Shown piece by piece: positions 2,131 to 49,395 of a DNA stretch of 62,922 nt; positions within the stretch are counted from its first letter, which is position 1, and each line of letters opens with the position of its first letter. The DNA is taken from IMG/VR virus record IMGVR_UViG_3300048690_000084, positions 1 through 62,922 of that record. The stretch is one strand, 5' to 3'. Made by a program: the position numbers and the translations under genes. The notes under the pieces were generated by a model that worked only from the letters and a program-made list of their open reading frames with translations, was not told the origin of the DNA and searched no databases. Origin of the DNA: a virus (lineage: Duplodnaviria > Caudoviricetes).

Positions 2131-3596
2131 TTCTTTCCTTTCACATAACGAATAAGCGCAGCCTTCACCGCCTTGTTGAACTCCACGCTCGGCGCTTTCG
2201 GCACATCGTATAAACCTTTGGGCCACACGCCAAACTTGTCTTTGTAGGTGTGCGCCGCTCTGCCTGTGCTCCAGCCGTGGTTCTTCACCATGTACTGGCA
2301 CATGCTGTACCAGTCTTGCTTGCTCTCTCTGGATGCAGCAGCCTTCAACTCTTCCATCTCACCGGGTACAGACTCCACCATGCTGCGCTTGTCTCGCGTG
2401 TAGCCGCAGTGCAGGCAGGTATCCGATCCGCTGGCCCACAGATGGCCGCACTTGGGACACTTGGCCGCCTCTTTCTCTTTCTCGGTCTTTTCCTTCTTGG
2501 CCTTCTCGCGTGCGTCATCCAGCTCATGCACGCCGTTGTTGTAAATCTCTTCCCAATCTTCTTGGAAGCGAATGTAGTTGCCAGAATGATCAAGCCACAC
2601 GGCAAACTCCTTGCCCGCACAGCCGCGCATCACTCGGCCCATCTGTTGCACATGGGATGACAGTGACTTGCTGAATGGGCGAGCGCTCACGCCAATCATC
2701 ACGTCAGGCACATCAAAGCCCTTGGTCAAAATGTCCGTGGCGATCAGGCCATGAATCTCCGTGTCTGGCTTGCTGAAATCTTCAATGACCTCCCGCTTGA
2801 AATCGCTCTCGTCTTCGTAGGAGATGCTGATAAAGTTGTAGCCCTGCTCAGCAAACTTCTTTGACAGGTCGGTGCCATGCGCCACGCCAGAACAGAAGAT
2901 GATGGTCTTGCGAGGCTTACCAAATATCTCGTGCGTCTTTTTGATCCACTCGGACACAATGTCTCCGGTGATCTGCATGCCGCGCTTGGTCGTCTCGCCT
3001 TGATTCCACTCCCCGGTGTTTAGCTTCGTGACGCCGGTCATGTCGATCTCTTTGGCAACGAACACGCGCAAGGGACAAAGAACCTTCTGATCAACCAGCT
3101 CTTTGGTTGTGACCGTGCTCACCACATGTTCGTACACGTTGCCAAGACCCTTTGTGAAGGGTGATGCAGACAGGCCGATGACTTTGATTTCTGGATTATT
3201 CTTGATGAACTCCACCGTCTGCTTGCGCATGGCGTGAGCTTCGTCAACGATCATCAAAGTCAGGCCGGGGAATGAGCCGCGCTTCTCCAGTGTCTGTGCA
3301 CTGCACACTTGAATGTGCTCGTATGGCCGATACCGCCAGTGACCAGACTGAAGCACGCCATGCTCGATGTTGTACTTCTCCAGACGCTGGCTTGTCTGAT
3401 CGCACAAGATGATCCGGTCCAAGATCATGGCCGCACGATTACCCTTCTTGTGGGTTGCATCCAACAGCGCGATTGCCATCTCAGTCTTGCCAGCACCCGT
3501 TGGGGCATACAGCATCTGAGCTTTGTACCCAGCAGCAAACCCCTTCCTCAAACCATCCAGCGAACCGGATTGGTACTCTCGTAATTCCAACGCCAT
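2127..3596 (-). CDS. Superfamily 2 (DEAH) helicase with C-terminal Zn ribbon
   Basis: LREYQ, APTGAGKT, VDEAH, SASP, KGFDVPD, QQMGRVMR, CPKC..CLHC. Confidence 0.95.
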   Translation of the reverse strand: MALELREYQSGSLDGLRKGFAAGYKAQMLYAPTGAGKTEMAIALLDATHKKGNRAAMILDRIILCDQTSQRLEKYNIEHGVLQSGHWRYRPYEHIQVCSAQTLEKRGSFPGLTLMIVDEAHAMRKQTVEFIKNNPEIKVIGLSASPFTKGLGNVYEHVVSTVTTKELVDQKVLCPLRVFVAKEIDMTGVTKLNTGEWNQGETTKRGMQITGDIVSEWIKKTHEIFGKPRKTIIFCSGVAHGTDLSKKFAEQGYNFISISYEDESDFKREVIEDFSKPDTEIHGLIATDILTKGFDVPDVMIGVSARPFSKSLSSHVQQMGRVMRGCAGKEFAVWLDHSGNYIRFQEDWEEIYNNGVHELDDAREKAKKEKTEKEKEAAKCPKCGHLWASGSDTCLHCGYTRDKRSMVESVPGEMEELKAAASRESKQDWYSMCQYMVKNHGWSTGRAAHTYKDKFGVWPKGLYDVPKAPSVEFNKAVKAALIRYVKGKK

Positions 3597-3643
3597 TTGT
3601 TTCTCCAACTGCCAGCACACATGCCCGCTGGCTTGGGCAATGA

Positions 3644-4462
3644 TCACTCTGCCTTCTTGAGTTGACGCTGCATCGACAGCACTTGCTTCTTGAGCTGGCT
3701 GTTCTCTGACTGGTACTGATCACGGCTTTGCTTGACTGCGGCCAGCTCAATCTTTGTTACGCGCAAGTCCTCACGCAGCTCTTCAATCAGGGCTGTGGCA
3801 GCCTGTTTGTCTTCTGGTGAGGCATCCATGCCAGCAACTGCAACGCGGGCCTTCAGCTCCTCATTCTCGGCCAGCAGCATGTCGATGGCCTCTTGGTTGT
3901 GGTCTTCCTTCTCTGCTTGAGGCGGGATGACCCCTGGACCTTTAAGCTCTGGCTCTTTGACTGGACGACCGGGCGCCTTGGCCTTGACCGCGACATTGCC
4001 ATCCTTTGTCTTGTACTTCACAACAGCAGGGCCACCGCTGTCACGCAAGCTGGCCACGAAAGTTGGTGACACGCCGCATCGACGAGCGATCTCGCTGTTG
4101 CTCCAATCACTCCACTCGAAGTCATCCAGCAGCGTCATCACGGACTTGCGCTTGTCTGCATAGGTCCGGCGCATGCCATGGTTTGCATTCACACCAGCAG
4201 AGTGCAGGATTGCGTCACGCAGGGTGCCCTGAAGCACATCACACTGAATGCTGACCTTCTCGGCACGCTTGTGTGCAAGCACGCGATGGTAGCCGTCCGT
4301 CAGGTAATAGTTGATGCCGTCAAAGTACACCAGCACTGGCGGAAACTCTGCGCCGTCTTTGATTGCATCCACGTAATCGGCAACAGTGTCTTCGCTGATT
4401 TCTGTTCTCGACTGCAGGCGCTCGTCCATCACGAGTGCGCCAATGTTCATCACTTTATTCAT
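3644..4462 (-). CDS. ParB-like N-terminal domain protein with HTH and coiled coil
   Basis: FPPVLV..LTDGYHRV motif; SNSEIARRCGVSPTFV HTH. Confidence 0.8.
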   Translation of the reverse strand: MNKVMNIGALVMDERLQSRTEISEDTVADYVDAIKDGAEFPPVLVYFDGINYYLTDGYHRVLAHKRAEKVSIQCDVLQGTLRDAILHSAGVNANHGMRRTYADKRKSVMTLLDDFEWSDWSNSEIARRCGVSPTFVASLRDSGGPAVVKYKTKDGNVAVKAKAPGRPVKEPELKGPGVIPPQAEKEDHNQEAIDMLLAENEELKARVAVAGMDASPEDKQAATALIEELREDLRVTKIELAAVKQSRDQYQSENSQLKKQVLSMQRQLKKAE

Positions 4463-15270: not shown

Positions 15271-15813
15271 ATGAAGTGTTCTCGATGCGAGTGTGATGCA
15301 ACCATAAAACAAGGCAACCAGCACCTGTGCGATATGCACTACAGGATTGGCCAAATGAGGGTGGCTGCAAAAAGAAACGGCAAGGTGGTTCCAGCCCATG
15401 AACAGCTTGAAGAGCTGATCAAGAAAGGTCTTGGGTGCCCTGATTGCGGAGTTCAAATGAATTGGCGATCAAAAGACGGAAGGGCCACGGTAGCCAGTTT
15501 GCAGCACTACAGAAGTGGTCGGATCGGGATCGTTTGCTTGTCCTGCAATGCAAGACATGCCGCAATGGATGGGGATAGTTATTGCGAAATGCCGAAAGAC
15601 CACAAGCGCTGCCCTTCTTGTTTGAAGACAAAACCAGCACTTGAGTTTTCTGCGGACAACGGCAGGTCTGGGACTCTCAAGAGAAAAAGTATTTGCAAAC
15701 AGTGCTCAAACGAAAAAGTCAACCAATGGAAAGAAAGAAACAGAGATGAATACAACGCATACCAACGAGCCTACAGAGCCAAACGCAAAGAGCATGGAGG
15801 GCCGATTACTTGA
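15271..15813 (+). CDS. HNH/endonuclease VII-like Zn-finger endonuclease
   Basis: CPDC...SLQH...CLSCN core; RCPSC..K...EF...CKQC Zn finger. Confidence 0.6.
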   Translation: MKCSRCECDATIKQGNQHLCDMHYRIGQMRVAAKRNGKVVPAHEQLEELIKKGLGCPDCGVQMNWRSKDGRATVASLQHYRSGRIGIVCLSCNARHAAMDGDSYCEMPKDHKRCPSCLKTKPALEFSADNGRSGTLKRKSICKQCSNEKVNQWKERNRDEYNAYQRAYRAKRKEHGGPIT

Positions 15814-15952: not shown

Positions 15953-16290
15953 TCGAACTGGACGACTGGTCGGCGCACATGATGCGTGCCGAGATTCAAC
16001 TCAAGGCCATCGAGAAGCATTTGCTCAACAAGGACTACGACAAAATCCAAGCTCACGCTACGTCGGCCAAGCACTACATCGACAAGACGATGGCGTGGGT
16101 GGCCCGCCAAGGCTCCAGCAAGGGCGTGGATGTGGTTGAAATCCTTGAGGGCAACGTGCACATGCTGAACGACTCGAACCCACTCAAATCGCTTTTAATC
16201 GCCTCCATTCAGGAGATTGAGCAGCTCAGGGGCGAGAGGCAGTTTTGGCTGAAGTCCGGCTTCGACATCGGCAAGTCAGATCGTGAATAA
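15949..16290 (+). CDS. Hypothetical protein
   Basis: GGGAGG RBS, ATGA overlap. Confidence 0.7.
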   Translation: MIELDDWSAHMMRAEIQLKAIEKHLLNKDYDKIQAHATSAKHYIDKTMAWVARQGSSKGVDVVEILEGNVHMLNDSNPLKSLLIASIQEIEQLRGERQFWLKSGFDIGKSDRE

Positions 16291-16549
16291 CAAACTAACA
16301 CCAAGGCAACGAGAGCACATCGGGAAGGTCAAACTTTTGGCCTGCTCGGTGTGCGACAAGCCGGGACCAAGTGACGCTCACCACATTGAGCAAAAACTTC
16401 AATATTGTGTTGTGTCACTATGTCGAGACTGTCATAATAGCTTACATGGCGAAAAGCTCATCTGGAAAGTAAAGAAGATGGATGAGCTGAAAGCGCTCAA
16501 CGTAACTATTGAAAGGCTCTCAAATGGCTTTGAAGGACATGACTGGTAG
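16283..16549 (+). CDS. Ref/DUF968-like small HNH-fold nuclease
   Basis: CSVC....DAHHI....LCRDCH..LHG. Confidence 0.7.
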   Translation: MNNKLTPRQREHIGKVKLLACSVCDKPGPSDAHHIEQKLQYCVVSLCRDCHNSLHGEKLIWKVKKMDELKALNVTIERLSNGFEGHDW

Positions 16550-17279
16550 CGTATTTGGTGCGCTTACCGTGACCGGAAGGGAAAGTAATCTGCCGGACGG
16601 CACGGCAGTCTGGAGGTGTGTATGCGAGTGCGGCGAAGTTCGAGTTATACCCGGCAACTCACTTCGCGCAGGAAGAAACAAAAGCTGCGGATGCCTGTCT
16701 CCAAGATTTACATCCGAGAGGACAAAAAAGCACGGCATGTCCCTCAGTCGGGTCTATGGCATTTGGCAAGGAATGATCGCAAGGTGCTCTAATGCCTCAG
16801 TCGGAAAAACAAGAAGGCTCTATTACAACAAGGGAATCAGGGTGTGCGAAAGGTGGATGAGGTTTGAAAACTTTTTGGAAGACATGGGCACCCCAGAAAA
16901 ACACCAAAGCATTGACAGAAAGGACGGAGACAAAGATTACGAGCCGGGAAACTGCCAGTGGGCCGACAGCAAGGCTCAAGCAAACAACACATCCTCAAAT
17001 CTGATCATCACCCTGAATGGTGCCTCACTAACCGCATCAGAGTGGTCTGATAAAACAGGGATCAAGGCAAACACAATTGTCTACAGGATAAGGCGAGGCT
17101 GGAGCGCCGACCGAGCTTTGGAAAAAAATCCAATCAATGTCCGCACAAAAAGAAAAGAGGAAAGAGCTAGGCCTTGCGAGGTGTGTGGCACAGAGTTTTG
17201 CCCAAGACCCGCGCAAATAAAAGCAGGAAATGGAAGATTCTGCTCTCAAAAATGCAACGGCGAGTCCCGCAAAACATAA
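16524..17279 (+). CDS. HNH-type homing endonuclease with C-terminal Zn finger
   Basis: FG.LTV..WRCVCECG, KSCGC, W.GMIARC, GIRVCERW..FENFLEDMG, SIDR.D....EPGNC.WA. Confidence 0.85.
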   Translation: MALKDMTGSVFGALTVTGRESNLPDGTAVWRCVCECGEVRVIPGNSLRAGRNKSCGCLSPRFTSERTKKHGMSLSRVYGIWQGMIARCSNASVGKTRRLYYNKGIRVCERWMRFENFLEDMGTPEKHQSIDRKDGDKDYEPGNCQWADSKAQANNTSSNLIITLNGASLTASEWSDKTGIKANTIVYRIRRGWSADRALEKNPINVRTKRKEERARPCEVCGTEFCPRPAQIKAGNGRFCSQKCNGESRKT

Positions 17280-17436: not shown

Positions 17437-20400
17437 TTACTCGCCCTGTATTGCGCGAACCCGATCGTTCAGCATCTGCATTTTGCGGGTGATCATTTTC
17501 TCCACGCTCTGGATCGACTCACGCGGAGCATCAGCCTCAAGCAGCTTTGCCTTGCGCTTCTTGAGGTTCTGAATCTCAACATAAGTCTTACGCCCCATCT
17601 CGGCCAATCGAGCTTCTGGGTTCTCGGAAAGATACTCGGCAATCGGCTCACGATTTTCTCTGCGGCCTTTGATCTCGTTCTCGTGCTCATTGAGCAGCGT
17701 GAGGTTCTTGTAGAACCGACCAGACTCAGCAGCTGAGCCAGATGTCTCGCCATAGAAGCGGCCAACCAGAGGAATCTTGTACGAAGGAAGCTCTTCGCCG
17801 GACGCGGTCTTCGCAACGGTCTGCTCAACCTTCAGCAATTCACGACCAACGCCGCCTGTCGCCTGACCAATCAAATAGTCCAGCTGGTCAGGAGTGGGGC
17901 TCAGCACGCCGGGTTTGAATTCCGTGCCGCCGGATGCGTAGTTCAGGAACTTGGCGATCTGCGTGGAGAACTCGCTGGCCGTGTCCTTGGCTCGGGTGTA
18001 CCCGGGCGTTGGATCAAGGTTGCTGAAGTCCTTGCGTGCAATGGGCTTGCCTGTCCAGTCGCGGTTCTCTGTGAGCGCCACGATTGGGTCTGCAAATGTT
18101 GGTGCCAGCGTTTGAGCTGACCAGCCAGCGTTGCCAATCGGGTTGAACGCCTCAAGGTACATGCCAGTCAGCGACGCAATGCGCTCTGGTGTGTCTTTGA
18201 ATCCAGACAAGGCCCACTCGGTCAAGATGCGGCTTGTGCTTGGGATGACGTGGTAGCCGAGAGGCATCGGGAATGCCAAGTACTTGTCGCCGCCGATAGG
18301 CAGGATCAAGTTGCGCTCACGCACAAACTCGGGCGGCTCTTCGTCATCGAACCCGGCAGCAGCCAGCAGAGCGGCCTGCATCGAGCCAAGCAGCAAACCG
18401 CCAGCAATGATCTTCTTGCCTGCTGGACCGCGAAGGGTCTGGACCAAGCGAGTTGTACCCTGCATAGCGGCGTTGAAGAAGGCGTAGAGTGCGCCAGCCT
18501 GAACGGCAATCTGACCCTTGCGGTTGAAGTTGACCGTCAGGTTTTTGGCGATTGATGCAGCCTCTTCCTTGCCGATGCCCTTGTCCAGCGCGGCCTTATA
18601 GGCAGACAGGCGGACAGCGTTTTCCATCGAGTCGTTGTAGTCGCTCAGCCAGTTGATGGCAGCGCGGCCGGCAGACTTCAGCTTGCCCTCTTTGATCATG
18701 TTCAGCTCTTTTTGCAAAGCCTCTGCACGCTCTTGCGAACGGCTGAACTGATCGCGGAAACCGGTCTGGCCACCTTGCTCTTGGAACTCAACCCAAAGGT
18801 CTGACCACTGGCCGGTCACCTTCTTGCCGTCACGCTCAGCACGTACCGCAGCATAGATGCCCTTCAGCGCAGGCAGCGTACCCGCTACGACGGCCTTTGT
18901 GTCTTTGGCAAGGGGTGTGTTGCTCAGCTGCAGTGCAGCGCCTTGTACGTCGCGCAAGAAGTTGTATGCACCGAAGACTGGGTTGTACTGCGTGTTGACG
19001 GCAGCCATCCAGCGAGTCAGCTTGGAAATAGGGCCGAGCACATTGCCCAGCTGCTCAGCATCCAAATTCTTCAGCGACTCAACCATGCGCTTGGAGCGCT
19101 CGTTGTTCGGGTTGAAGAAGACGTAGCGGTTCTGTCCATTGAACCGCATGGAGATCACGTTCTCGTTGTTGCGCAGCGTTGCATTGATGCGCTCCACAAC
19201 TTCGTTCCTGTTCTTGTCGATCGCCTTTTGGCGAGGCTCTTTGGCGATGAAGTCCAAGTCCTGCTGGGTCAGGCCAAAGTTGAGCAACTCCTGCAGGTTG
19301 GCGGGGTCCACCTCTGCAAGCGGGTCAACGGGCAACCAGAACTCTGGGTTCGGATTCTGCGCGGCCAAGCCAAACAAAGCCTGAGCAACGCGGTTCTTCT
19401 GCGCCTTGACGATGGCACGCTCGCGCATCATGGCCACGTTAGCCAGCACGTCAGTTGCCTCTCGCTCCGAGCCCATCGCACGACGGCTAAAGTCACCGCG
19501 CACATCAAAGCCCTGACCGGTGCCCATGCCGTTAGCGGTGTAGGCGTAGTCGATGTCGCCACGCTTGAGCGGAACGTAGAACGGGAAGGTCGCCTCCCAG
19601 TTGTCGATCGTCTCTTGCGTCTCAAGGCCACTGTCAACCAGAATTTTGCGTGTGCCCTTGGTGATGCTGTCAACTCGCTTGGCCAGCGCCTCGTACTTGG
19701 CTTTGTCGGCCGGAGACAGCTTGTTCAGGTAGGCCTGAGCGTCAGCAGTCTTGATGCCGGAGCCGCCATCAGGCATCTTCGGATTGACCTTGGCAACCTG
19801 AGCGTTGTATGCGATGGCATGGCGGTTCTTGAGGTATTCCTCCATGTCCGCAATGTTGACGCCGTCCTTCTCCATGGCCTGCATCAGTGGGCGCAGCTCA
19901 TCAATCAGGAAGTCCTTGGTCTGCTTTGCGGTGCGGCCGTGGTACAGCTCTTCCTGCAAGTACGGGTTCCACTTGGCCATGATCTTGCCGGCGGTAGACG
20001 AGATCGCATCCACCACTCGCTTGGTGTCGATCATCTTGTCTTGCAAGGTGTAGATCAGGTCATCCTTGCCAATGTCGCCAGCCAGCTTGGTATCGGTCGG
20101 AGTTGTCCACTGCGAAAGGATCGGCTTGCCCGTGATGCTGTCGCGGCTGTAGCGAATGTCGGTATTGTCTGGATCGTATGCGCCGATGTTGCCGGTGGCA
20201 GATTTGATTTGCTTCGAGCTGAAGACGCCGAGGTTTTTTACCTGCCTTCCTGCCTCTCTGACGTAAAAGCTGTCGTGACCCATCGCCTTAATCGCTGCTT
20301 GCACCTTGCGCGATTCAATGGCTTCATAGTCGCCGCGCTTGATGTCGCGGACGTAATTTGAGACGCTGCGCTCGGTGTAACGGTTGTCTTTCTCGTATTG

Positions 20401-23400
20401 CTCAAGCGCCGCGATGTGCTCGGGATTGTCGAAGTCGAACGGGTTTTCCGCCTTGACGTAGACCGGGAGAATATTGGGCTGCCCGCCAGATTTATCCAAG
20501 CTGTCGATGGTGGTGGTTGTGTATTCCTCGGCAAATTTGGGGTCGGCGGTCAAAAAGATCATGCCGTCCTTTGGCTCAAACGCAAAGAAGTCTGCATCGG
20601 TGCCGTGGTACATCACCAGCGGCTTACCATTGGAATCAACCACCTTACTGCTGCCAAACCACTTTTTGAATGCCGCTGTACCGGGGCCAGTCTTTGGTGC
20701 ATCACTGCGCGAGGCCGCAGGCTTTCCTTTTACAGCGCGACGTTTGCCGCTCTCAACAAAGGCGCGAGCAGGCAAGATGTACTTCTCAATGATGTCGGCA
20801 TCAGACAACTTGATATTGAGGCCAAGATCACGCAAGAAGTTGCGGATGATGGCGATCGCACGCTTGACGAATGGCAGGCCCGGTTTGGTCTGAGCCATAA
20901 CAGCCAGCACCTCTTCAGCAGCTTCAAGCATATCCTTTTGGCTGTTGACATCGAGGCCGTACTGCTTGGCCTTAGCCTCCACTTCGGCGCGTCGGTTCTT
21001 CACCACGTCAGCCAGCACCTCGCCCATCTTGGGACCGAACGTGCCGCGCAGACCGTAGTGGCCCAGTGATTCATGGAACAGCGTCTCGATAACGTCTTGG
21101 TCGGACGACATGGCATCAGCCAAGATGTACGCCTTGCCGTTGTAGAAGAAGCCCTTCGGAGTGCCCTTTGCGCCAGCCGCAATCGCAGCCTTGTTGTGCT
21201 CGCGGACCGCCTTCGGAACGACGGGGTCATCCATGTTCTCGGCAATCACAACCTTCGGAGCATTCGCCCACTTGGACTTTGTTGCACCAACAACTTCCGA
21301 GGTGCGGTCAACGCCGATAGATGGGCCAGCAGAAGTGCTGCGCTGGTAGCGAATGTCAGTGGCTTCACCAACTTCTTGCTCTGTGGCCGAGCGCTCAACG
21401 GAAGCGGCCTCACCGGGCTCAACTTCGGAAATCTCATACTCAGCCATGCGAGGAGCTTCGGCCTCACGGCGCTTTTCGCTGATCTTGTTTTCCAGATCGC
21501 GGGCGCTGATGCCTGCGTCAAACGTCAGGTTATCCCTGTTGCGCAGCTTTTCCTTGATGTACTCAGCGGACTCCGACTCATCAAACGTGATGGAGCCCGG
21601 GCGCTTGTCTGGCGGAAGGTAGTTATCCAGCGAACCGCTCGACACCATGTCAGAGATGAACGCGCCACCACGGCCACCCTTGATGCGCAGGTTCCTGCCG
21701 ATGTCAGGAGAGATGTCCGACACCTCTCCCGGTGCCAACTTGCCCATCAGTTCGCCGTAAAGGTTGGTGCTCTTGATGCGGCTGCGCTCCTTCTCAAGCT
21801 GTGCAATTTCTGCATCAGCCTCAGATTCAGGCGGTGTTGGCTGCTCACGCATCTTCTCCAAGCGTGTCACATCCTTCTTTGTCAAAGGCGCTTCGGGTGT
21901 TGCTGGTCGCGCCTGCAGATTAGCCAACTCCTCGCCGCCAACCACAACATCGCGGCTCTCGACTGGAGGTAGATTTTTATCGCCAAAGACGCTGGTTGCA
22001 GCCTTCTCTTTGTCCTTGCGCAAGTTCTCGATGTCACGCTTGAGAATCTCACCCATGCGCTCATCAATGCGATCAAGAAGAATCTTTGACTGCGGACTTT
22101 TCTCTTCGGCCATCAGGCGCTGCTTCTCGCGCTGAAGAAGTGCATAGTCATCACCCAAAGCCGACTCCGAAGCCTCTCGCTCCTCGCGCTTTGCACGCAT
22201 CCTCCCGGCAAGATCGCCGCCAGCAGGCGTTGCTTCAAGGCTTGGCTTATTCCCGGTGATGGATTTACCAACGGGCTCCTCAACAAAAACAGGCTTGGCA
22301 GGAACGGCTTGTGGCTTGTACTTGTTCTCAAACTGCTGCCGCTCATATTCGGCAACTTCCTCGGGCGTAGTTGCTACAGAGCCATCAGGAAACACCATTG
22401 GCTTGAAGGGCTCCGAGGCACCAAGCGCCAGCGTTGGCTGCTTATCAGCCTCCTGTGCCGCGTATTTATTCTGGAACTGCTGCTCTTCATACCGAGCAAC
22501 ATCTTCAGGTGTCGTGGCAACAGAGCCGTCAGGGAAAACAACAGGTTTAAATGGCTCGGAGGCACCAAGAGCAAGAGGCTGAACCTTTGCCTCCTCTTCG
22601 GCACGCTGAGCTTCGGCAAGTTGCGCAAGACGCTGAGCCTCGGCCGCATCGAACTCTTGCTTGGCTTTCACGCCTTGACGAGCCATTGCTGTGTTGACTG
22701 GACCAGCACCGCCACCAATTGCGCCACCGATCAAACCAGCCTGATATGCCACTTCGCCATACTCAGACAACGCTTCAGGAGATGTGACATCCAAGCCTGC
22801 TTGCGCCCGCTCAATGACGCTTTGCGCAATCTCAACTGGAATCTCGGTGGCAATGCCCTTGGCAACACCACGTCCAGCGGCGGCAGCAAGAGATCGCTCG
22901 GCCGCTTGAGTCATCGCCTGCTGAGCTTTGGTCGTTGCCAACGCGGCATCGTCAGCCACACCAAGAACACCCTTAACGATTCGCTTGCCCAGAACGAACG
23001 CAGTACCAGCGCCCTCGATGGCAGCCTGACCAGCGGCGGCAGCACCAGCGGCTGCGCGATCAATCTGAACTGGCTCTCCCTTTTCGATTTGCTCAGAGGC
23101 CTGTCGCTCGACGTTGGAGCCAAAAAACTGAGGCAGCAGTGTTGCACCAGCGCCCAGTGCGCCACCAACAAACGTGCCAATACCGGGGGCTACGGCCGTA
23201 CCAGCCATCGCGCCAAGACGAGCACCGCCAGCCATCGCAGCAAGGTTTGCACCCTGACCAGCCAAGGCGCGGGGGATTTGACCAACAGCTTCGCCTGCGG
23301 CAGACAGCAGGCCGCGATCCTCGTAAGCCTTCTTCAAGGCCTCAAAGGACACGCCCTCGCCCGCTTCTTTCCCGATCTCTTCGCCGCGCTTGATGCCTGC

Positions 23401-23631
23401 AACTGCCGCATCTTCAGGGCTGCCGAGCAATGACTCAATGCCAGTTCGAGCGGACGAGATTACCTGCTTACCACCACGGACAAGCTCGCTGCCAATGGTG
23501 GATTTCTTTTGGGGTTCGACCGCAGCGGTGGCTTGCTGGTGGGTGTAGTTGGCCCATTCCCAAGCTGTGTTTGGATCGGGAGCCTCTACTTGGTATTTAC
23601 TCCCGCCAACCTCAACTTCGTATGTAGCCAT
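17437..23631 (-). CDS. Large polyvalent virion/ejection protein (metallopeptidase-like, ART-like and LPD38-like domains)
   Basis: HESLGH; FKKWFG.SKVVD..GKPLVMYHGT...QIKSATGN; TVNFNRKG..LYAFFNA, ENRDWTGKPI. Confidence 0.8.
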   Translation of the reverse strand: MATYEVEVGGSKYQVEAPDPNTAWEWANYTHQQATAAVEPQKKSTIGSELVRGGKQVISSARTGIESLLGSPEDAAVAGIKRGEEIGKEAGEGVSFEALKKAYEDRGLLSAAGEAVGQIPRALAGQGANLAAMAGGARLGAMAGTAVAPGIGTFVGGALGAGATLLPQFFGSNVERQASEQIEKGEPVQIDRAAAGAAAAGQAAIEGAGTAFVLGKRIVKGVLGVADDAALATTKAQQAMTQAAERSLAAAAGRGVAKGIATEIPVEIAQSVIERAQAGLDVTSPEALSEYGEVAYQAGLIGGAIGGGAGPVNTAMARQGVKAKQEFDAAEAQRLAQLAEAQRAEEEAKVQPLALGASEPFKPVVFPDGSVATTPEDVARYEEQQFQNKYAAQEADKQPTLALGASEPFKPMVFPDGSVATTPEEVAEYERQQFENKYKPQAVPAKPVFVEEPVGKSITGNKPSLEATPAGGDLAGRMRAKREEREASESALGDDYALLQREKQRLMAEEKSPQSKILLDRIDERMGEILKRDIENLRKDKEKAATSVFGDKNLPPVESRDVVVGGEELANLQARPATPEAPLTKKDVTRLEKMREQPTPPESEADAEIAQLEKERSRIKSTNLYGELMGKLAPGEVSDISPDIGRNLRIKGGRGGAFISDMVSSGSLDNYLPPDKRPGSITFDESESAEYIKEKLRNRDNLTFDAGISARDLENKISEKRREAEAPRMAEYEISEVEPGEAASVERSATEQEVGEATDIRYQRSTSAGPSIGVDRTSEVVGATKSKWANAPKVVIAENMDDPVVPKAVREHNKAAIAAGAKGTPKGFFYNGKAYILADAMSSDQDVIETLFHESLGHYGLRGTFGPKMGEVLADVVKNRRAEVEAKAKQYGLDVNSQKDMLEAAEEVLAVMAQTKPGLPFVKRAIAIIRNFLRDLGLNIKLSDADIIEKYILPARAFVESGKRRAVKGKPAASRSDAPKTGPGTAAFKKWFGSSKVVDSNGKPLVMYHGTDADFFAFEPKDGMIFLTADPKFAEEYTTTTIDSLDKSGGQPNILPVYVKAENPFDFDNPEHIAALEQYEKDNRYTERSVSNYVRDIKRGDYEAIESRKVQAAIKAMGHDSFYVREAGRQVKNLGVFSSKQIKSATGNIGAYDPDNTDIRYSRDSITGKPILSQWTTPTDTKLAGDIGKDDLIYTLQDKMIDTKRVVDAISSTAGKIMAKWNPYLQEELYHGRTAKQTKDFLIDELRPLMQAMEKDGVNIADMEEYLKNRHAIAYNAQVAKVNPKMPDGGSGIKTADAQAYLNKLSPADKAKYEALAKRVDSITKGTRKILVDSGLETQETIDNWEATFPFYVPLKRGDIDYAYTANGMGTGQGFDVRGDFSRRAMGSEREATDVLANVAMMRERAIVKAQKNRVAQALFGLAAQNPNPEFWLPVDPLAEVDPANLQELLNFGLTQQDLDFIAKEPRQKAIDKNRNEVVERINATLRNNENVISMRFNGQNRYVFFNPNNERSKRMVESLKNLDAEQLGNVLGPISKLTRWMAAVNTQYNPVFGAYNFLRDVQGAALQLSNTPLAKDTKAVVAGTLPALKGIYAAVRAERDGKKVTGQWSDLWVEFQEQGGQTGFRDQFSRSQERAEALQKELNMIKEGKLKSAGRAAINWLSDYNDSMENAVRLSAYKAALDKGIGKEEAASIAKNLTVNFNRKGQIAVQAGALYAFFNAAMQGTTRLVQTLRGPAGKKIIAGGLLLGSMQAALLAAAGFDDEEPPEFVRERNLILPIGGDKYLAFPMPLGYHVIPSTSRILTEWALSGFKDTPERIASLTGMYLEAFNPIGNAGWSAQTLAPTFADPIVALTENRDWTGKPIARKDFSNLDPTPGYTRAKDTASEFSTQIAKFLNYASGGTEFKPGVLSPTPDQLDYLIGQATGGVGRELLKVEQTVAKTASGEELPSYKIPLVGRFYGETSGSAAESGRFYKNLTLLNEHENEIKGRRENREPIAEYLSENPEARLAEMGRKTYVEIQNLKKRKAKLLEADAPRESIQSVEKMITRKMQMLNDRVRAIQGE

Positions 23632-44327: not shown

Positions 44328-45026
44328 TTAGACACCACTTCCGATGAACATCTGGCGAGGAACAAATCGAACGGCAGCTTTCTCCCGGTCTTCGGAAGAT
44401 GCAAGGTCCCAAGCTTCGTCGTACTGGGCTTTGAGAATCTGTAGGCGCTCCAAGCCACCGGGGATTTTCATCGCCAAGTAATAGGCCAGTCCAGCGATCA
44501 TGGCCGGGATAAAACGGAACGGCATGTCCATGGTGTTCACACCCTCACCAGCATTCTGGATGCGGCGCAGACGCCAGTACACCAGCGTGTAGGTCTGGGT
44601 GTTGTCTGGCACAGGCCAAACAGTGAACCGTGGCGTGTTCAGGCGCTCAATCCAAATCTGGATAGGGCGGGCCTGAGTCAGCTTGTTGGGGATCGTGGCA
44701 TACGTAGAAACACTTATGCGCGTGATGGTCAGGTCGGCTTGCGTCGATGCGCTGCCTGCGCCCGTGCGGATGACGTGCTCCATAAGGTCAACCGTGTCGG
44801 CCGGCAGCTCATATGTGGCCACGCCCGGGGTCAACACTTGCGTGCCTTGCTCGAACGTCCACATATTGATGCCTCGGTTTGCCCAGTCAGCAAACAGCAG
44901 GTTTAGTGAACGGCGAGCGGTTCGCAAGTCGTAACCAGTCCGCATCTCGGAGCCCACTCGCTCAAACGCTTCCTCGACGATTTCTGTCAAATCGACGTTA
45001 AAGTTTGCAACTCCAGATGTGGCCAT
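44328..45026 (-). CDS. Head-tail adaptor-like protein
   Basis: EEAFER.G, ARRSLNL...WANRG.N.W, GLAYYLA. Confidence 0.7.
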   Translation of the reverse strand: MATSGVANFNVDLTEIVEEAFERVGSEMRTGYDLRTARRSLNLLFADWANRGINMWTFEQGTQVLTPGVATYELPADTVDLMEHVIRTGAGSASTQADLTITRISVSTYATIPNKLTQARPIQIWIERLNTPRFTVWPVPDNTQTYTLVYWRLRRIQNAGEGVNTMDMPFRFIPAMIAGLAYYLAMKIPGGLERLQILKAQYDEAWDLASSEDREKAAVRFVPRQMFIGSGV

Positions 45027-45029
45027 GAT

Positions 45030-45278
45030 TTACTTCTTCGCGGTTTTGGCTGAGTTCAAGAACGCTTGCTTAGTTGGCGCACCTTTGCTACCAACGCTTC
45101 GCATTTTCTCTCCAGAGCCTTCAGCAATTCTTTTGCGCTTTGCATTAATGTTTGCATACAGTCCTACTTTCCCGCCATCGGCGTACTGCGTGAAGTCGGT
45201 GTCATCCCGGCGAGCTTTACGCACGCCCTTGGGCATCTTCGATGAGGCGATGGCACCCATGCCACGGCTGGCCATCAT
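45030..45278 (-). CDS. Small basic protein
   Basis: SRGMGAI, YADGG, GLYANI.AKRKRI. Confidence 0.7.
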   Translation of the reverse strand: MMASRGMGAIASSKMPKGVRKARRDDTDFTQYADGGKVGLYANINAKRKRIAEGSGEKMRSVGSKGAPTKQAFLNSAKTAKK

Positions 45279-45279
45279 G

Positions 45280-45723
45280 TCAGCACACCTTGCCGCGAGT
45301 TTTACCGCGCTGGGCGATGCCGTCAGCACGACGAGAGGCCGACACTGCGCCGCCTTTTTTGAATGTCTCAGGGGAGGCTTCGGTGTTTTCTTCGCTGTTT
45401 AACCGCGCACCGCGCATCGCACCTGTAGCTTCAGCCGCGCTGTCGAGCATATTACGGACACGACGCGATTCACCGCTCTTGGCCATAGTCTCGTCATCAG
45501 GCTTGCGGGCCATGGATGTGCGAGTTGAACCCTGAACCATTGTTGGAGCGCGTGGCGAACGATCGTCACGAGACTTGTACTCACGCGAAACTTTGCCGCC
45601 CACGGAGGGCTGCTCGGTTTGGGAGGCTAGTTCCGTGGTGAACTTCTTGCCGTTGAACTCAAACGTTTTATCGCCAGCAGCGCGTGCTTCGCGGAATGCT
45701 TTGCCGAAACCAGATGTAGCCAT
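45280..45723 (-). CDS. Small basic protein
   Basis: F..AF..AR..G.KTF.FNGK.FTT; FKKGG; RADGIAQRGKTRG. Confidence 0.7.
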   Translation of the reverse strand: MATSGFGKAFREARAAGDKTFEFNGKKFTTELASQTEQPSVGGKVSREYKSRDDRSPRAPTMVQGSTRTSMARKPDDETMAKSGESRRVRNMLDSAAEATGAMRGARLNSEENTEASPETFKKGGAVSASRRADGIAQRGKTRGKVC

Positions 45724-45733
45724 AATTTTCTCC

Positions 45734-45970
45734 TTAGCAGGCTTTGCCGCCACGGGCCATCTTGATCATGGTGCCTTTGGTCTTGCCTTTGACAGCGATA
45801 CCGTCGGGCTTTGAGCTTGTCTTAACTGCGCCCATCTTGGTCATGCCGCCAGCCTTCAAGCCTGCGTGAGCCTTGGAGGCGGGTTTGGCAGCGTGCTTGG
45901 CCAACGCGTCAGCGCCGCCCTTTTTCTTTTCCATCATTGCGGCAAAGCCAGCGTTCATTTTTGTAGCCAT
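45734..45970 (-). CDS. Small basic protein
   Basis: LKAGG, DGIAVKGKTKG, MARGG. Confidence 0.7.
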   Translation of the reverse strand: MATKMNAGFAAMMEKKKGGADALAKHAAKPASKAHAGLKAGGMTKMGAVKTSSKPDGIAVKGKTKGTMIKMARGGKAC

Positions 45971-46013
45971 GGTGTACCACCTTTAAAAATGCGGGTTTAA
46001 CCGCGATTGAATT

Positions 46014-46253
46014 TTATGCGTCCGTTTTGTTGCGCAGATTGTCAATCTTGCGCTCAATTCGGTCAAACCTATCCAGCAACTGAGCCATGTCCGCCCGGAA
46101 TTCTGTGCGAGTGATGTGATCACGCGCCACTTCTTCCCGGGTGCGGTTCAGCAAAATGCTCAGCCGATCCAGCTCGTCGAATTTACTCTTGAGCAGAAAA
46201 CCCATCACAGCCACGATGGCGCTGAGCGCTACATTCCAAAGCATCATTTCCAT
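46014..46253 (-). CDS. Small TM + coiled-coil protein
   Basis: N-terminal TM; LLNRTREE.AR. Confidence 0.7.
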   Translation of the reverse strand: MEMMLWNVALSAIVAVMGFLLKSKFDELDRLSILLNRTREEVARDHITRTEFRADMAQLLDRFDRIERKIDNLRNKTDA

Positions 46254-46256
46254 GAT

Positions 46257-46517
46257 TCAGCACTTCCATCGCGCCAGTGACGCGGCTTTACGAGTGGGCT
46301 TGCCCTTCTCGTCTTTCATTGGACCCGGCATACCACTCATGCGTGCGCAGAAAGAGTCCTTGCGCTTGCCGCCTTCTGGCTGCGGGGCTTTAAGGCTGCT
46401 ACCTGTTTTGGCATTGTATGCTTTTCGACCGGCCGCAGTCATACCAGCACCTTCTTTTGTGCTGAGATAGTTGCGGCCCTTGCCTTTGGTAGTTTTTGCA
46501 ATTTGGTTTGCCATCAA
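46257..46517 (-). CDS. Small basic conserved phage protein (DUF6321-like)
   Basis: GAGMT..GR..YN..TGS.LKAP...R..SFCARM.G...RWKC. Confidence 0.75.
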   Translation of the reverse strand: MMANQIAKTTKGKGRNYLSTKEGAGMTAAGRKAYNAKTGSSLKAPQPEGGKRKDSFCARMSGMPGPMKDEKGKPTRKAASLARWKC

Positions 46518-47083
46518 AGCACCTCAAACCGGTTGTGTTTTGAAATATTCTCTTTGCCACGCAACACCCGCATATTGCTGGGGACGTGCAAACCAGACAC
46601 TAAATCACCTTGAAGCGGGATTACGTGATCGACATGCCAAGGCTCTTGGTTTTCACGGGTACGCATTGCCGCAACGGAGTGCAGGCACCTAATCTTTAGC
46701 TTGTCAAACTCGGTAAGCCATGCAGGGGTTCGTTGCAGCTTTATGGCCCTGCGGTTTGCAGCGCTTGCAGAAGCAATTTCGGGGCGTAGCTTTTGGCGGT
46801 TCAGCTGCCGTTTTTTGGCCTGCTCGTGATTTGCGTAGTAGTACTCAAGCGCTTGGGCGCGTCTTGTTTCTGCGTTGCGCTGGTATTCCGCCGAATAGTC
46901 CCGCTGCATATCAGAAGTTTTACGTTTGTGCTCTCGGCTACAAAACCTTGCGTTTGACTTTTTGTGGTCAATGTCCACGCCACACAACTCGCAGGCACGA
47001 CCTTTGGCGGTCAAACCAGCCCCCTTTGAGGCGGGCAGCTTTTCACCACGGCCGACAGCAAGGGAGGGGGTCTTCTTAGCCAT
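46514..47083 (-). CDS. HNH homing endonuclease fused to the captured 5' end of the neighbouring gene family
   Basis: RTPAWL, HVDHVIPLQG..VSGLHVP.N..L...EN..K.N; N-terminal KGAGLTAKGRA. Confidence 0.88.
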   Translation of the reverse strand: MAKKTPSLAVGRGEKLPASKGAGLTAKGRACELCGVDIDHKKSNARFCSREHKRKTSDMQRDYSAEYQRNAETRRAQALEYYYANHEQAKKRQLNRQKLRPEIASASAANRRAIKLQRTPAWLTEFDKLKIRCLHSVAAMRTRENQEPWHVDHVIPLQGDLVSGLHVPSNMRVLRGKENISKHNRFEVL

Positions 47084-47366
47084 AATAGACTGTCAAGTGC
47101 GCGTTGGCTGGCAGGGATACGTAAACACCATTGGAGAACTTGATGCCCTCGCCCGGAATTGCCAGCGAATCAAGAGCTTGGTTCGTTGAAATGTTAAGCG
47201 TCAAACGGATCGTGCCACTAGCAGCACTCGCGTTATCGTAAAACTCAACTTCACCAGCGGTGCCGCCGGGGGAAATGGAGTAACCTTTAACCCGAGTAGG
47301 ACCTGCAAAAACAATGCCGCTCGCGTCAAGGTGCGCGGCTTTTACATCTGTCTGCATCATAATCAA
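47076..47366 (-). CDS. Structural hypothetical protein
   Basis: QTDVK, IPGEGI.F..G.Y. Confidence 0.75.
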   Translation of the reverse strand: MIMMQTDVKAAHLDASGIVFAGPTRVKGYSISPGGTAGEVEFYDNASAASGTIRLTLNISTNQALDSLAIPGEGIKFSNGVYVSLPANAHLTVYYG

Positions 47367-47374
47367 TCTCCTTT

Positions 47375-47394
47375 AAAAAAGGGGCCGAGGCCCC
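47375..47394 (-). terminator. Intrinsic terminator
   Basis: GGGGCC-TC-GGCCCC followed by T6 on the minus strand. Confidence 0.6.
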
Positions 47395-47403
47395 CGAGAT
47401 CAA

Positions 47404-47712
47404 TTAGCTCAGGGCTGCGCCGACGGCAGTAACCCAAGCGGCACCAGTGCTGATGACCAAGCAGTACTCGTTGTTGCCAGAGCCGTTGTCGCTAATCAAG
47501 CGAACTTGGCCAGCGTTACCAGCAGCTGCTGCAGGCAGAGCGGCAGTCAGGATGGCTGGCAGGTCAAGGAAGGCGGAGACGGTAACGCTGTCTACGCTGG
47601 TGGCTGGACCCAAAGTGCCAGTAACGGTTACAGCGCCAGTCGTGGAGCTAATAGAAACGGTTTGAAAGCCATTTTCAGAACGAACTGGGCCGGAGTAGGT
47701 GGTATTGCTCAT
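47404..47712 (-). CDS. Minor capsid/decoration-like protein
   Basis: TT.SGPVRSENGF start, directly after the capsid gene. Confidence 0.7.
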   Translation of the reverse strand: MSNTTYSGPVRSENGFQTVSISSTTGAVTVTGTLGPATSVDSVTVSAFLDLPAILTAALPAAAAGNAGQVRLISDNGSGNNEYCLVISTGAAWVTAVGAALS

Positions 47713-47721
47713 GCTGATTCC

Positions 47722-47797
47722 TCACATGCGAGTTGAGGCGTATCTGTCTGCATGTCGTCGGCCCGGAGCCGTCAGATACACCGGAAAAGTCCGGGAG
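47722..47797 (-). ncRNA. Structured RNA downstream of gpT-like capsid gene (likely Mu-gpT-DE motif)
   Basis: 10-bp stem 47737-46/47773-82, two 6-bp pseudoknot-type pairings; location matches that motif's described context. Confidence 0.6.
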
Positions 47798-47814
47798 TGC
47801 TGGCAATATACACC

Positions 47815-47842
47815 AAAAGAAAAGGGCCCACAAGGGGCCCTT
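47815..47842 (-). terminator. Intrinsic terminator after capsid gene
   Basis: AGGGCCCC-loop-GGGGCCCT followed by TTTCTTTT. Confidence 0.75.
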
Positions 47843-47864
47843 CTCATTTCTCCATAAACGCTGA

Positions 47865-48779
47865 TTAAGCGCCGGGGGAGCCGTAGATACCCAGTGGGTC
47901 CGACACGCCGAAGCTGTAACGCTCGCGGGCTTTGTAACGGACGTTCCCTGTATCGAAGTCACCATCCATGGAATTCGCCAAAGGCGAACGCACAAAGTGC
48001 TTCAGACCGTTAGGCACGTCAGTCAACAGGAACCAAGCGTTGGTGTCAGTCAAGAAGTTGTTGACTGTGTAACCACCGGGGATGGAGCCGTTGTTCTTGA
48101 TGGCGTTGATGTCGTTGTCAGCAGTACCGACGCGGAGTTCAGTTTCCAACAGGCGGGTTGCAACGAATTGCAGTGCTGGTGGAACAACCAACTTCTTAGG
48201 CTTAGCGGCAATCAACAGACCGCGTTCGTCTGTCCAAGCAGCGATCTGAATAACAGCGTTTTCCAACGATGTTTCGTTCAAGTCGGCAGCAGTAGCAGGA
48301 CGGTTGCTGTTAACGCCACCAGACACCAGAGGGTGAGCGGTAGAGAACAGAACTTGGCCGTCACCGTAAGTGGGGTTGCCGGAACCAGTGAAACCTTGGT
48401 TCAAGATCGCAGCAGCCTTGACTTGCTTGGTGTAAGCCATTGCACGGGCCAAGGCCTTGGTGTAGCGGCTGGACAAGCTGTCGTACAAGTTATCTTCCAC
48501 AGCTTCTTCCGTGATGGAGAAGCCTTGGGCGATGGTCTCGTGGGTGTAGCGAGCAGTCCATGCTTCTTGCGCGTTGTCATAAGCGATGGCGGAGCCTTCG
48601 TTCTTGACAGGAGCGGCTTGGAAGCCAGACAACTTGGTTTCTTCTTCAAAGCTACGCTCCGAGGATTCGGTTTCGTAGATTTCTTTGTGCTGCTCGCCGT
48701 AACGTGCGTACTCCATGCCGAACAAGGCGTTCAGGCCGGGAAGCAATTCTTTGAGCAGTTGTGCGCGTGAAATAGCCAT
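47865..48779 (-). CDS. Major capsid protein (Mu gpT-like)
   Basis: MAISRAQLLKELLPGLNALFG; S.RSFEEE; RERYSFG; biased codon use. Confidence 0.9.
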   Translation of the reverse strand: MAISRAQLLKELLPGLNALFGMEYARYGEQHKEIYETESSERSFEEETKLSGFQAAPVKNEGSAIAYDNAQEAWTARYTHETIAQGFSITEEAVEDNLYDSLSSRYTKALARAMAYTKQVKAAAILNQGFTGSGNPTYGDGQVLFSTAHPLVSGGVNSNRPATAADLNETSLENAVIQIAAWTDERGLLIAAKPKKLVVPPALQFVATRLLETELRVGTADNDINAIKNNGSIPGGYTVNNFLTDTNAWFLLTDVPNGLKHFVRSPLANSMDGDFDTGNVRYKARERYSFGVSDPLGIYGSPGA

Positions 48780-48792
48780 GGTGAGTTACTCC

Positions 48793-49395
48793 TTAGATGC
48801 CGACGGCGTTAGAGAAGGCGTGTGCGCCGGGATTGAACTTCACCAGAACGTCTGGGAAAGCGTCAGTCACAGGGGATGCAAAGCCAATGATTTTGAACGC
48901 AGCAGCGGCGGTTTGAACGGTGGACTCCAATGCGCTGGTCGAGTTACCTGTACGGGTAGAACCTGTAGAGGTGGACTGCACGGCAGCAAAGAAAGTGTTC
49001 GCACCAAGAGCGGCTTGAGTCACGGAACCATCCAGCTGAGCTTGGAAAGTCACGCTGTCGTCAGTCACCACGTATGCAGTCACCACGCCGGTTGTGCCGG
49101 AGGGGTAGTACTGAGCGTAGATTTGCTGGCCTTGTGCGTTGATGTACGAGCAACCAACGAACACACCAATAGCGCCGAGGCCAGAGCCGCCGAGGTTGTT
49201 GGTAGTCAAGTCAGCGCCAGTGGCGGTGGACAGAGCGATGTAACCATCAGCATCCAGAATCACAACTTGACCGTAGAACAAGTTGGTACCGGTGCCGGCT
49301 GGGTTAATCAGGAACTGCGATGTAGCGCCGGCATAGGGCATGCCGTCGTTACGGTTTACGGCTTTCAGACCGTAAGGGGAGGCGGTAGTTGCCAT
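48793..49395 (-). CDS. Capsid-associated (cement/decoration) protein
   Basis: PYGL..V, GVF.GC.Y; directly upstream of capsid. Confidence 0.7.
   Translation of the reverse strand: MATTASPYGLKAVNRNDGMPYAGATSQFLINPAGTGTNLFYGQVVILDADGYIALSTATGADLTTNNLGGSGLGAIGVFVGCSYINAQGQQIYAQYYPSGTTGVVTAYVVTDDSVTFQAQLDGSVTQAALGANTFFAAVQSTSTGSTRTGNSTSALESTVQTAAAAFKIIGFASPVTDAFPDVLVKFNPGAHAFSNAVGI

Follow-up and report, generated by a model that had tools for sequence, protein, structure and literature searches.

The whole of the 62,922-base IMG/VR record IMGVR_UViG_3300048690_000084 (hereafter, the window), a freshwater phage genome that is 99% complete, was analyzed, and its head module was found to carry a putative free-standing HNH homing-endonuclease cassette, apparently lodged within the coding region of a small DUF6321-family gene of this module. 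In full, the proposed reading is that the cassette sits within the DUF6321 gene after codon 30, that its nuclease borrows the start codon of the invaded gene, and that it carries a replacement 5′ end for that gene. This reading is considered very probable, and confidence in the architecture alone is higher still: sequence comparison makes evident the layout, the limits of the mobile unit, the borrowing of the start and the rebuilding of the gene.

The region is a part of the head module encoded on the minus strand, where geneX is followed by a 189-aa HNH ORF and then by an 85-aa DUF6321 gene. Upstream of these, the major capsid gene (47865-48779, minus strand; Pfam Phage_capsid_4) is separated from geneX by a minus-strand gene for a 102-aa protein. 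GeneX itself (47076-47366, minus strand; 96 aa; phrog_28102, E 1.2e-8) is a head-module gene of unassigned function, whose stop codon and the start of the following ORF overlap by 8 nt. This ORF, the HNH fusion (46514-47083, minus strand), comprises 30 captured codons, 159 codons of the HNH core and a stop codon. The DUF6321 gene after it (46257-46514, minus strand; PF19846, E 1.5e-21), recognized below as a rebuilt chimera, scores 77.3 bits vs. a cutoff of 28.5 over residues 23-83, so that the domain starts inside a motif which the two ORFs have in common. Farther downstream on the same strand lie a 79-aa gene (p79), several genes for small basic proteins and an SU10-type adaptor gene (44328-45026; Pfam).

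A consensus scan returned pattern matches to terminator-like hairpins upstream of geneX (47380-47395, minus strand) and after the capsid gene (47819-47845). Between the beginning of geneX and the DUF6321 start, the HNH ORF included, the scan revealed no promoter- or terminator-like sites on the minus strand; one weak promoter-like match (46413-46442, 9/12) falls within the DUF6321 gene. A nucleotide search of phage GenBank records in distant mode, with positions 45000-48800 as the query, yielded no close relatives, the match being limited to the capsid gene (65-69%). In the phage DSL-LC04, a geneX-like gene, a DUF6321 gene and a p79-like gene occur in this order without an HNH gene. A literature search found no paper mentioning the DUF6321 family.

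The initial annotation described the HNH ORF as opening with a 30-residue stretch that switches abruptly to CELC, which agrees exactly with the ORF list (CELCG). The motif GAG(L/M)TA.GR, said to occur twice, is likewise present both in the HNH leader and in the next ORF (46257-46514, minus strand), which opens with MANQIAKTTKGKGRNYLSTKEGAGMTAAGRKAYN. The two N-termini are identical in 12 of 30 residues (BLASTP, E 0.016), a similarity that is weak by itself, and nucleotide alignment of the two 5′ ends reveals little in common beyond the stretch GCTGGT.TGAC..C....GGTCG. Still, a chance resemblance is ruled out by the comparative evidence from the DUF6321 genes of relatives.

This evidence comes from three sets of viral contigs, comprising 80 loci with relatives of the HNH gene, 70 with relatives of geneX and 80 with relatives of the DUF6321 gene; the loci (designated by L numbers) are metagenome contigs and not independent samples. 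A DUF6321 ORF was located by script in 161 of the 230 loci. According to their 5′ ends, these genes comprise 91 of M-type (MAKK...GRGEKL...), 37 of S-type, 25 of K-type (...KTTKGKGR...) and eight others, several of which are in fact M-type genes called by the script from an upstream start. In numerous relatives, an intact M-type gene of 84-85 aa, continuing ...GRAKYNAATGSNLKAPQP, comes directly after geneX with the 8-nt overlap. The uninterrupted allele predicted in the initial annotation, ...GAGLTAKGRA-KYN..TGS..LKAP, was thus found right after geneX in many genomes, e.g., in L085 and L087, whose geneX proteins are 96% identical to that of the window.

The closest relative without the HNH gene is L085 (protein identity of 96% for geneX and 92% for the 102-aa gene). 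According to BLASTN, positions 47717 to 46994 of the window are collinear with L085 2650-3373 (85.5% nt identity), and positions 46418 to 46257 align with L085 3377-3538 (89.5%); the break points delimit an insert of 575 nt (46419-46993, minus strand) replacing 3 nt of L085. Together, the 91 uninterrupted M-type alleles and this clean insert represent an empty/occupied polymorphism at one site. The HNH clade in question is situated directly upstream of 11 of the 25 K-type genes vs. none of the 128 M- or S-type genes. The insertion point (AAAGGCCGTGCC/AAGTACAAC in L085) belongs to the most conserved stretch in the 5′ half of the gene: in 21-nt windows over 78 distinct M-type sequences, its conservation (0.90) is the highest within the first 175 nt, and further 3′ conservation matches or exceeds that of the insertion point (0.91 vs. 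0.90).

Other genes were encountered in this small-gene block. In many relatives, a gene for a 246-249-aa protein with the same overlapping start is situated between geneX and the DUF6321 gene (L084 3284-4024; L004 2031-2780; L005 2259-3008; also in L086, L088, L089, L091, L124-L126 and L136). Its Pfam similarity to the mannosyltransferase family Anp1 (E 4.8e-4) is weak and falls below the threshold; the gene may encode a head-linked glycosyltransferase. In L141, a 135-aa Endonuclease VII-type gene (3526-3933; PF02945, E 9.8e-18) between the DUF6321 gene and the p79 homolog represents a second, unrelated nuclease insertion in the block, and in L099 (1492-1733) an S-type DUF6321 gene is seemingly frameshifted into ORFs of 50 and 74 aa.

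Collinearity with L085 identifies the first 30 codons of the HNH ORF (46994-47083, minus strand) as the native 5′ end of the resident M-type DUF6321 gene. The 30 residues encoded by this leader are 93-100% identical to the N-termini of uninterrupted DUF6321 genes (100% in L012 and L067), and the leader varies with the recipient genome and not with the HNH gene, in line with the earlier view of it as a captured 5′ end. It is not a typical feature of the HNH family either, a point which the initial annotation had singled out for checking: apart from the window, it is present in six of the 77 distinct ORFs (L004, L006-L009 and, in a shorter form, L168), all at the same locus and all directly upstream of a K-type DUF6321 gene. 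Other ORFs of the family have either a CxxC at around residue 4 or an unrelated N-domain of ~37 residues at their beginning, and the PHROG homology of the 189-aa protein begins only at residue 27-29, past the leader. The leader is kept in frame in seven of the nine complete HNH ORFs at the site (the window and L004-L009), or in eight when the shorter leader of L168 is counted.

The HNH core (46517-46993, minus strand; 159 codons) extends from the first zinc-finger cysteine (CELCG). All ATG, GTG and TTG starts upstream of this cysteine fall within the captured piece, and an in-frame stop is located 4 codons ahead of the ATG of the HNH ORF. At the sequence level, the suggested hijacking of the start of the invaded gene holds: the HNH ORF retains the resident ATG, which overlaps the geneX stop by the same 8 nt, and lacks any alternative start before the first zinc-finger cysteine. 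At the other end of the ORF, the HNH stop overlaps the DUF6321 start as TGATG (46512-46516), and the final HNH codons (FEV) contain a Shine-Dalgarno-like GAGGTG (46520-46525, minus strand) that precedes the DUF6321 ATG by 5 nt; GAGGT occupies the equivalent place in L004 and L006-L009.

In the AlphaFold model of the fusion protein (mean pLDDT 74.4), residues 1-27 of the leader have a pLDDT <50; most likely, the leader is a disordered tail with a passive role. It stems from a small, basic protein of the head module, and it seems highly doubtful that it confers on the nuclease the timing and dosage of this protein or even carriage in the virion; if it did, a virion-delivered nuclease would cut the competing phage genome at the outset of a mixed infection.

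The 189-aa protein matches phrog_1035 (endonuclease VII; E 5e-13, residues 27-187) and phrog_8660 (HNH endonuclease; E 1.6e-8, residues 29-185). In the alignment of 44 related sequences, residues D152, H153, N170, N179 and N184 are invariant, and the model features a beta-beta-alpha unit at 149-182 (strands 149-153 and 171-175, helix 176-182; pLDDT of the block 75-96), so that the catalytic D/H-H...N...N/H motif on a beta-beta-alpha unit is present in both the alignment and the model. The Pfam HNH match (E 0.32) is below the cutoff of 21.4 bits, and an E-value of 0.01 for this family is reached by only two of the 44 members. A PDB profile match to the Cas9 HNH domain (E 0.71) was not significant. 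Foldseek returned no matches in PDB at E <= 0.001, the top non-significant ones being mostly HNH nucleases; a single-sequence PDB search with the protein gave no matches, an NCBIfam search gave nothing useful, and no Hint or intein families were among the Pfam matches. The assignment to the HNH superfamily rests on the invariant residues, the PHROG matches and the modeled beta-beta-alpha unit. In each of the ten DUF6321-linked HNH proteins, which group as a clade with a support of 100/99, the core measures exactly 159 aa; the cores of the window and L004-L009 are only 57-63% identical.

The replacement 5′ end comprises codons 1-32 of the rebuilt DUF6321 gene (46419-46514, minus strand), K-type residues extending to about codon 38. 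The initial annotation regarded this N-terminus as foreign, and the comparison with the native K-type alleles of phages devoid of the HNH gene (L156, L159, L196 and L220) bears this out: 31-32 of 38 residues match, vs. 17 of 37 for the M-type. From about residue 47 on, the rebuilt protein is identical to the M-type allele of L085; given the K-type 5′ end and these L085-like M-type residues, the gene is a chimera.

The borders of the mobile unit were traced by aligning the seven carriers of the GRA/CELCG junction, and the figures below pertain to L006, L007 and L008. At the nucleotide level, these are 37-74% identical in the 3′ end of geneX, 78-87% in the captured leader, 99% in the HNH core, 97-99% in the K-type 5′ end, 81-84% in the 3′ part of the DUF6321 gene and 42-90% in p79. 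Counted from the HNH ATG, there are 23 variable columns in positions 1-87, eight in 88-682 and 40 in 683-827. Since variability drops at 88-682 and rises thereafter, the recently shared block amounts to ~595 nt, with sharp edges at 88 and 682; it extends from the last leader codon to about DUF6321 codon 38, which in the window corresponds to 46402-46996 (minus strand), i.e., to the HNH core plus DUF6321 codons 1 to ~38. The segment identities and the column counts thus assign the leader and the DUF6321 3′ part to the recipient and indicate that the K-type 5′ end travels along with the HNH core. The near-identical block in the otherwise diverged L006, L007 and L008 is a sign of recent lateral spread.

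Since the record is a metagenome assembly, an assembly chimera or a chance open reading frame has to be considered, but the probability of this is practically negligible. Both junctions are spanned, without a single difference, by contigs from other freshwater runs (X2 record 5, 46680-47500; X2 record 4, 46398-46692; X4 record 14, 46909-47292), so the layout is not an assembly artefact; furthermore, six other contigs possess the identical GRA/CELCG junction, and the catalytic residues are invariant. Among the contigs of four runs, several parts being uncovered, none joins across the insert in the HNH-minus form, and hence an isogenic HNH-minus partner was not seen, a result that says nothing on whether empty alleles are absent. 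The simplest route to two copies would be an in-place tandem duplication of the DUF6321 gene, with the HNH gene inserted into the upstream copy and the 5′ ends diverging in situ, so that neither of them is foreign. The homology of the two 5′ ends (12/30 residues) is compatible with such a scenario, whereas in-place divergence would account neither for the 31-32 of 38 downstream residues matching the native K-type of HNH-less phages nor for a K-type 5′ end that remains 97-99% identical (nt) across three genomes with flanks at 78-87%. This origin is therefore regarded as extremely improbable.

Alternatively, the M-type leader could be a part of the element itself, if the HNH gene brought a MAKK... 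N-terminus of its own upon insertion before resident K-type genes. The same GRA/CELCG junction in the window and L004-L009, despite the limited identity of their cores, would fit this, and L155 shows that a K-type gene can be found in the geneX context. Nevertheless, the leader of L006, L007 and L008 displays 23 variable columns in 87 nt vs. 8 in the 595 nt of the adjoining core and hence tracks the recipient; the closest HNH-less relatives are of M-type and not of K-type, and HNH-less geneX loci are overwhelmingly of M- or S-type, which makes this explanation very unlikely. HNH proteins assisting terminases exist, and a domesticated phage nuclease serving packaging or the exclusion of competitors, whose place in the head operon is functional and not selfish, would agree with the position of the gene in a structural operon and its predicted translational coupling on both sides. 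Such a role appears unlikely in view of the sporadic distribution of the gene (missing upstream of 128/128 M- or S-type and 14/25 K-type genes), the truncated 61-aa HNH remnant in L154, the near-identical block in diverged backgrounds and the differing gene neighborhoods in L004/L005, L009 and L047; competitor exclusion would, in any case, act by the same cleavage as homing.

Under the homing-cassette reading, the mobile unit of ~595 nt consists of the start-codon-less HNH core followed by DUF6321 codons 1 to ~38 of the K-type. As the sequence shows, its insertion leaves the first 30 codons of the resident gene upstream and in frame with the HNH core, so that the nuclease is read from the resident ATG, and the complete chimeric DUF6321 gene, with its K-type 5′ end and resident 3′ end, restarts at TGATG behind GAGGTG. 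From this arrangement, we infer the likely mode of cleavage, self-immunity and expression. In a mixed infection, the nuclease would cut M-type alleles that have no HNH gene, at the insertion point or in its vicinity, close to codon 30. The break would be repaired from the HNH-bearing genome, with the captured leader (plus geneX) acting as the left homology arm and the DUF6321 codons from ~33-38 onward as the right one. Carriers would be immune, their left copy lacking the right half-site and their K-type copy differing at many positions. The HNH fusion and DUF6321 would presumably be translated late and in a coupled manner.

The junction is not uniform across relatives. In L168, the HNH core is fused after just 13 leader codons; in L010, the remnant is a separate, unfused ORF of 34 codons, and the HNH gene starts from its own GTG with an N-extension of 37 residues. 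A different gene neighborhood is found in L047, where the HNH gene has its own 4-codon start and is flanked by a 50-aa gene on one side and by a K-type DUF6321 gene on the other; L156 and L159 possess this neighborhood without the HNH gene. Only a 61-aa remnant of a decayed HNH gene is left in L154. In L155, a K-type gene directly follows the geneX homolog without an HNH gene, so K-type alleles can occur in the geneX context without the nuclease. A recent precise loss of the HNH gene from L155 was considered and rejected: its K-type 5′ end is only ~85% identical (nt) to those of L006-L008, and hence L155 is not a recent derivative. Fused, unfused and own-start HNH forms are interspersed within the clade on the tree, and therefore no claim is made as to which layout came first. 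Phages of the L047 type as the original donor and a microhomology join (TCGT) as the founding event were both considered as well, and the interspersed tree gives no direction for either.

The closest known parallels, as far as the cited texts describe them, are the hybrid genes of fungal mitochondria and the WHO elements of yeasts, both of which replace 3′ ends. Mitochondrial mobile ORFs (mORFs) form gene hybrids at atp6 of Allomyces macrogynus and at atp6, atp9, cox2 and nad3 of Glomus sp.; the endonuclease ORF carries a foreign C-terminal piece of the gene and the native piece stays as a duplicate, the two being clearly diverged in Glomus atp6 (63.5% nt identity), as described in PMC3630166. 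By that description, the mORFs and the phage element are alike in that an endonuclease ORF travels with a piece of a foreign allele and the native piece is left behind. The mORFs replace the 3′ (C-terminal) end and encode LAGLIDADG or GIY-YIG enzymes, whereas the phage element replaces the 5′ end and encodes an HNH-like one; unlike in the organellar cases so described, the leftover native piece in the phage provides the start of the nuclease, with the rebuilt gene downstream.

According to the description in PMC7282813, WHO elements reside at FBA1 in Torulaspora and Lachancea yeasts and replace the 3′ end of this gene at each homing event, their cleavage being allele-specific. Insofar as that source depicts them, they resemble the phage element in being inserted into a protein-coding gene, one end of which is replaced without protein splicing. 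They differ from it in replacing the 3′ end, in encoding intein-like zinc-finger proteins and in forming relic clusters, whereas the phage element is a single copy that replaces the 5′ end and captures the start. Overall, the trait of gene-end replacement, with a foreign copy carried and the native end left as a relic, is present in the phage element. The 3′-end replacement with a downstream relic is absent: it is the 5′ end that is replaced, and the relic is upstream and fused to the nuclease.

Phages are also known to possess free-standing endonuclease genes splitting other genes, such as mobE in Aeh1 nrdA, mobA in T4 gene 60 and seg in gene 43; the starts of these HNH and GIY-YIG genes overlap the upstream stop, suggesting translational coupling, as stated in the text of PMC2988022. 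The phage element is like those described there in that a free-standing nuclease lies in or beside a conserved phage gene, its start overlapping the upstream stop. In the described cases, two pieces reassemble as separate polypeptides, whereas here a full-length gene is rebuilt and the leftover is fused to the nuclease. Because the full-length gene is rebuilt from the carried 5′ end, no split protein is needed.

Inteins and intron ORFs in frame with the preceding exon provide examples of a selfish ORF translated from the start of the host gene, and the HNH fusion is similar to them in this respect. It differs from them in that no splicing is involved: the HNH ORF ends in a stop, and DUF6321 restarts in another frame. 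Continuity of the reading frame at both junctions and a Hint domain, which together would mark an intein, are absent. Full-text literature searches yielded no published phage example of such an element. Among the known elements, it stands out by its opposite polarity, the captured start codon and the dispensability of a split protein.

If correct, this organization implies that neither an intron nor an intein nor a split protein is required for a homing endonuclease to reside in the coding sequence of a phage: the start codon is borrowed from the target, and a spare front end of the gene repays the damage. Gene-end replacement, known from the mitochondria of fungi and the nuclei of yeasts, would thereby be extended to phages, where its polarity is reversed, and an explanation would be at hand for how phage structural genes gain mosaic 5′ ends with sharp bounds. 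The 595-nt unit, with its many empty alleles and several variant junctions, would also make a compact natural system for studies of target recognition and self-immunity of HNH enzymes. As for annotation, short "N-terminal extensions" on phage nucleases are to be expected as relics of invaded genes.

More nuclease-like genes are found in the genome on the plus strand (15271-15813, 16283-16549 and 16509-17279). The 256-aa HNH gene in the 16.3-17.4 kb region, which the initial annotation had drawn in as a similar case, matches phrog_374 (E 2.4e-56). A 180-aa zinc-finger protein, in which residues 109-173 match only the N-terminal part of an endonuclease VII PHROG, may be a nuclease remnant. A 2064-aa protein (17437-23631, minus strand) matches, with its C-terminal ~870 residues, giant PHROG families of unknown function (phrog_14770, E 1e-245) and is probably a large internal or ejection protein.

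The minus-strand stretch 45030-45970 of the window and many other loci encode a run of small, very basic proteins, rich in Lys, Gly and Ala and ending in ...GKTKG...C, which are possibly internal components of the virion; certain DUF6321 proteins (L102, L103, L113-L115 and L140) bear this tail as well. Within one ORF of this run (45030-45329, minus strand), 93 nt (45072-45164) are ~82% identical to a 49-aa ORF of T7-like cyanophages (e.g., S-B28), whose label "ribonucleotide reductase A subunit" is an evident mislabel. The corresponding module of ~50 aa (phrog_16028) has a gene of its own immediately upstream of DUF6321 in L156 and L159 and is fused to DUF6321 in L157 and L160-L162.
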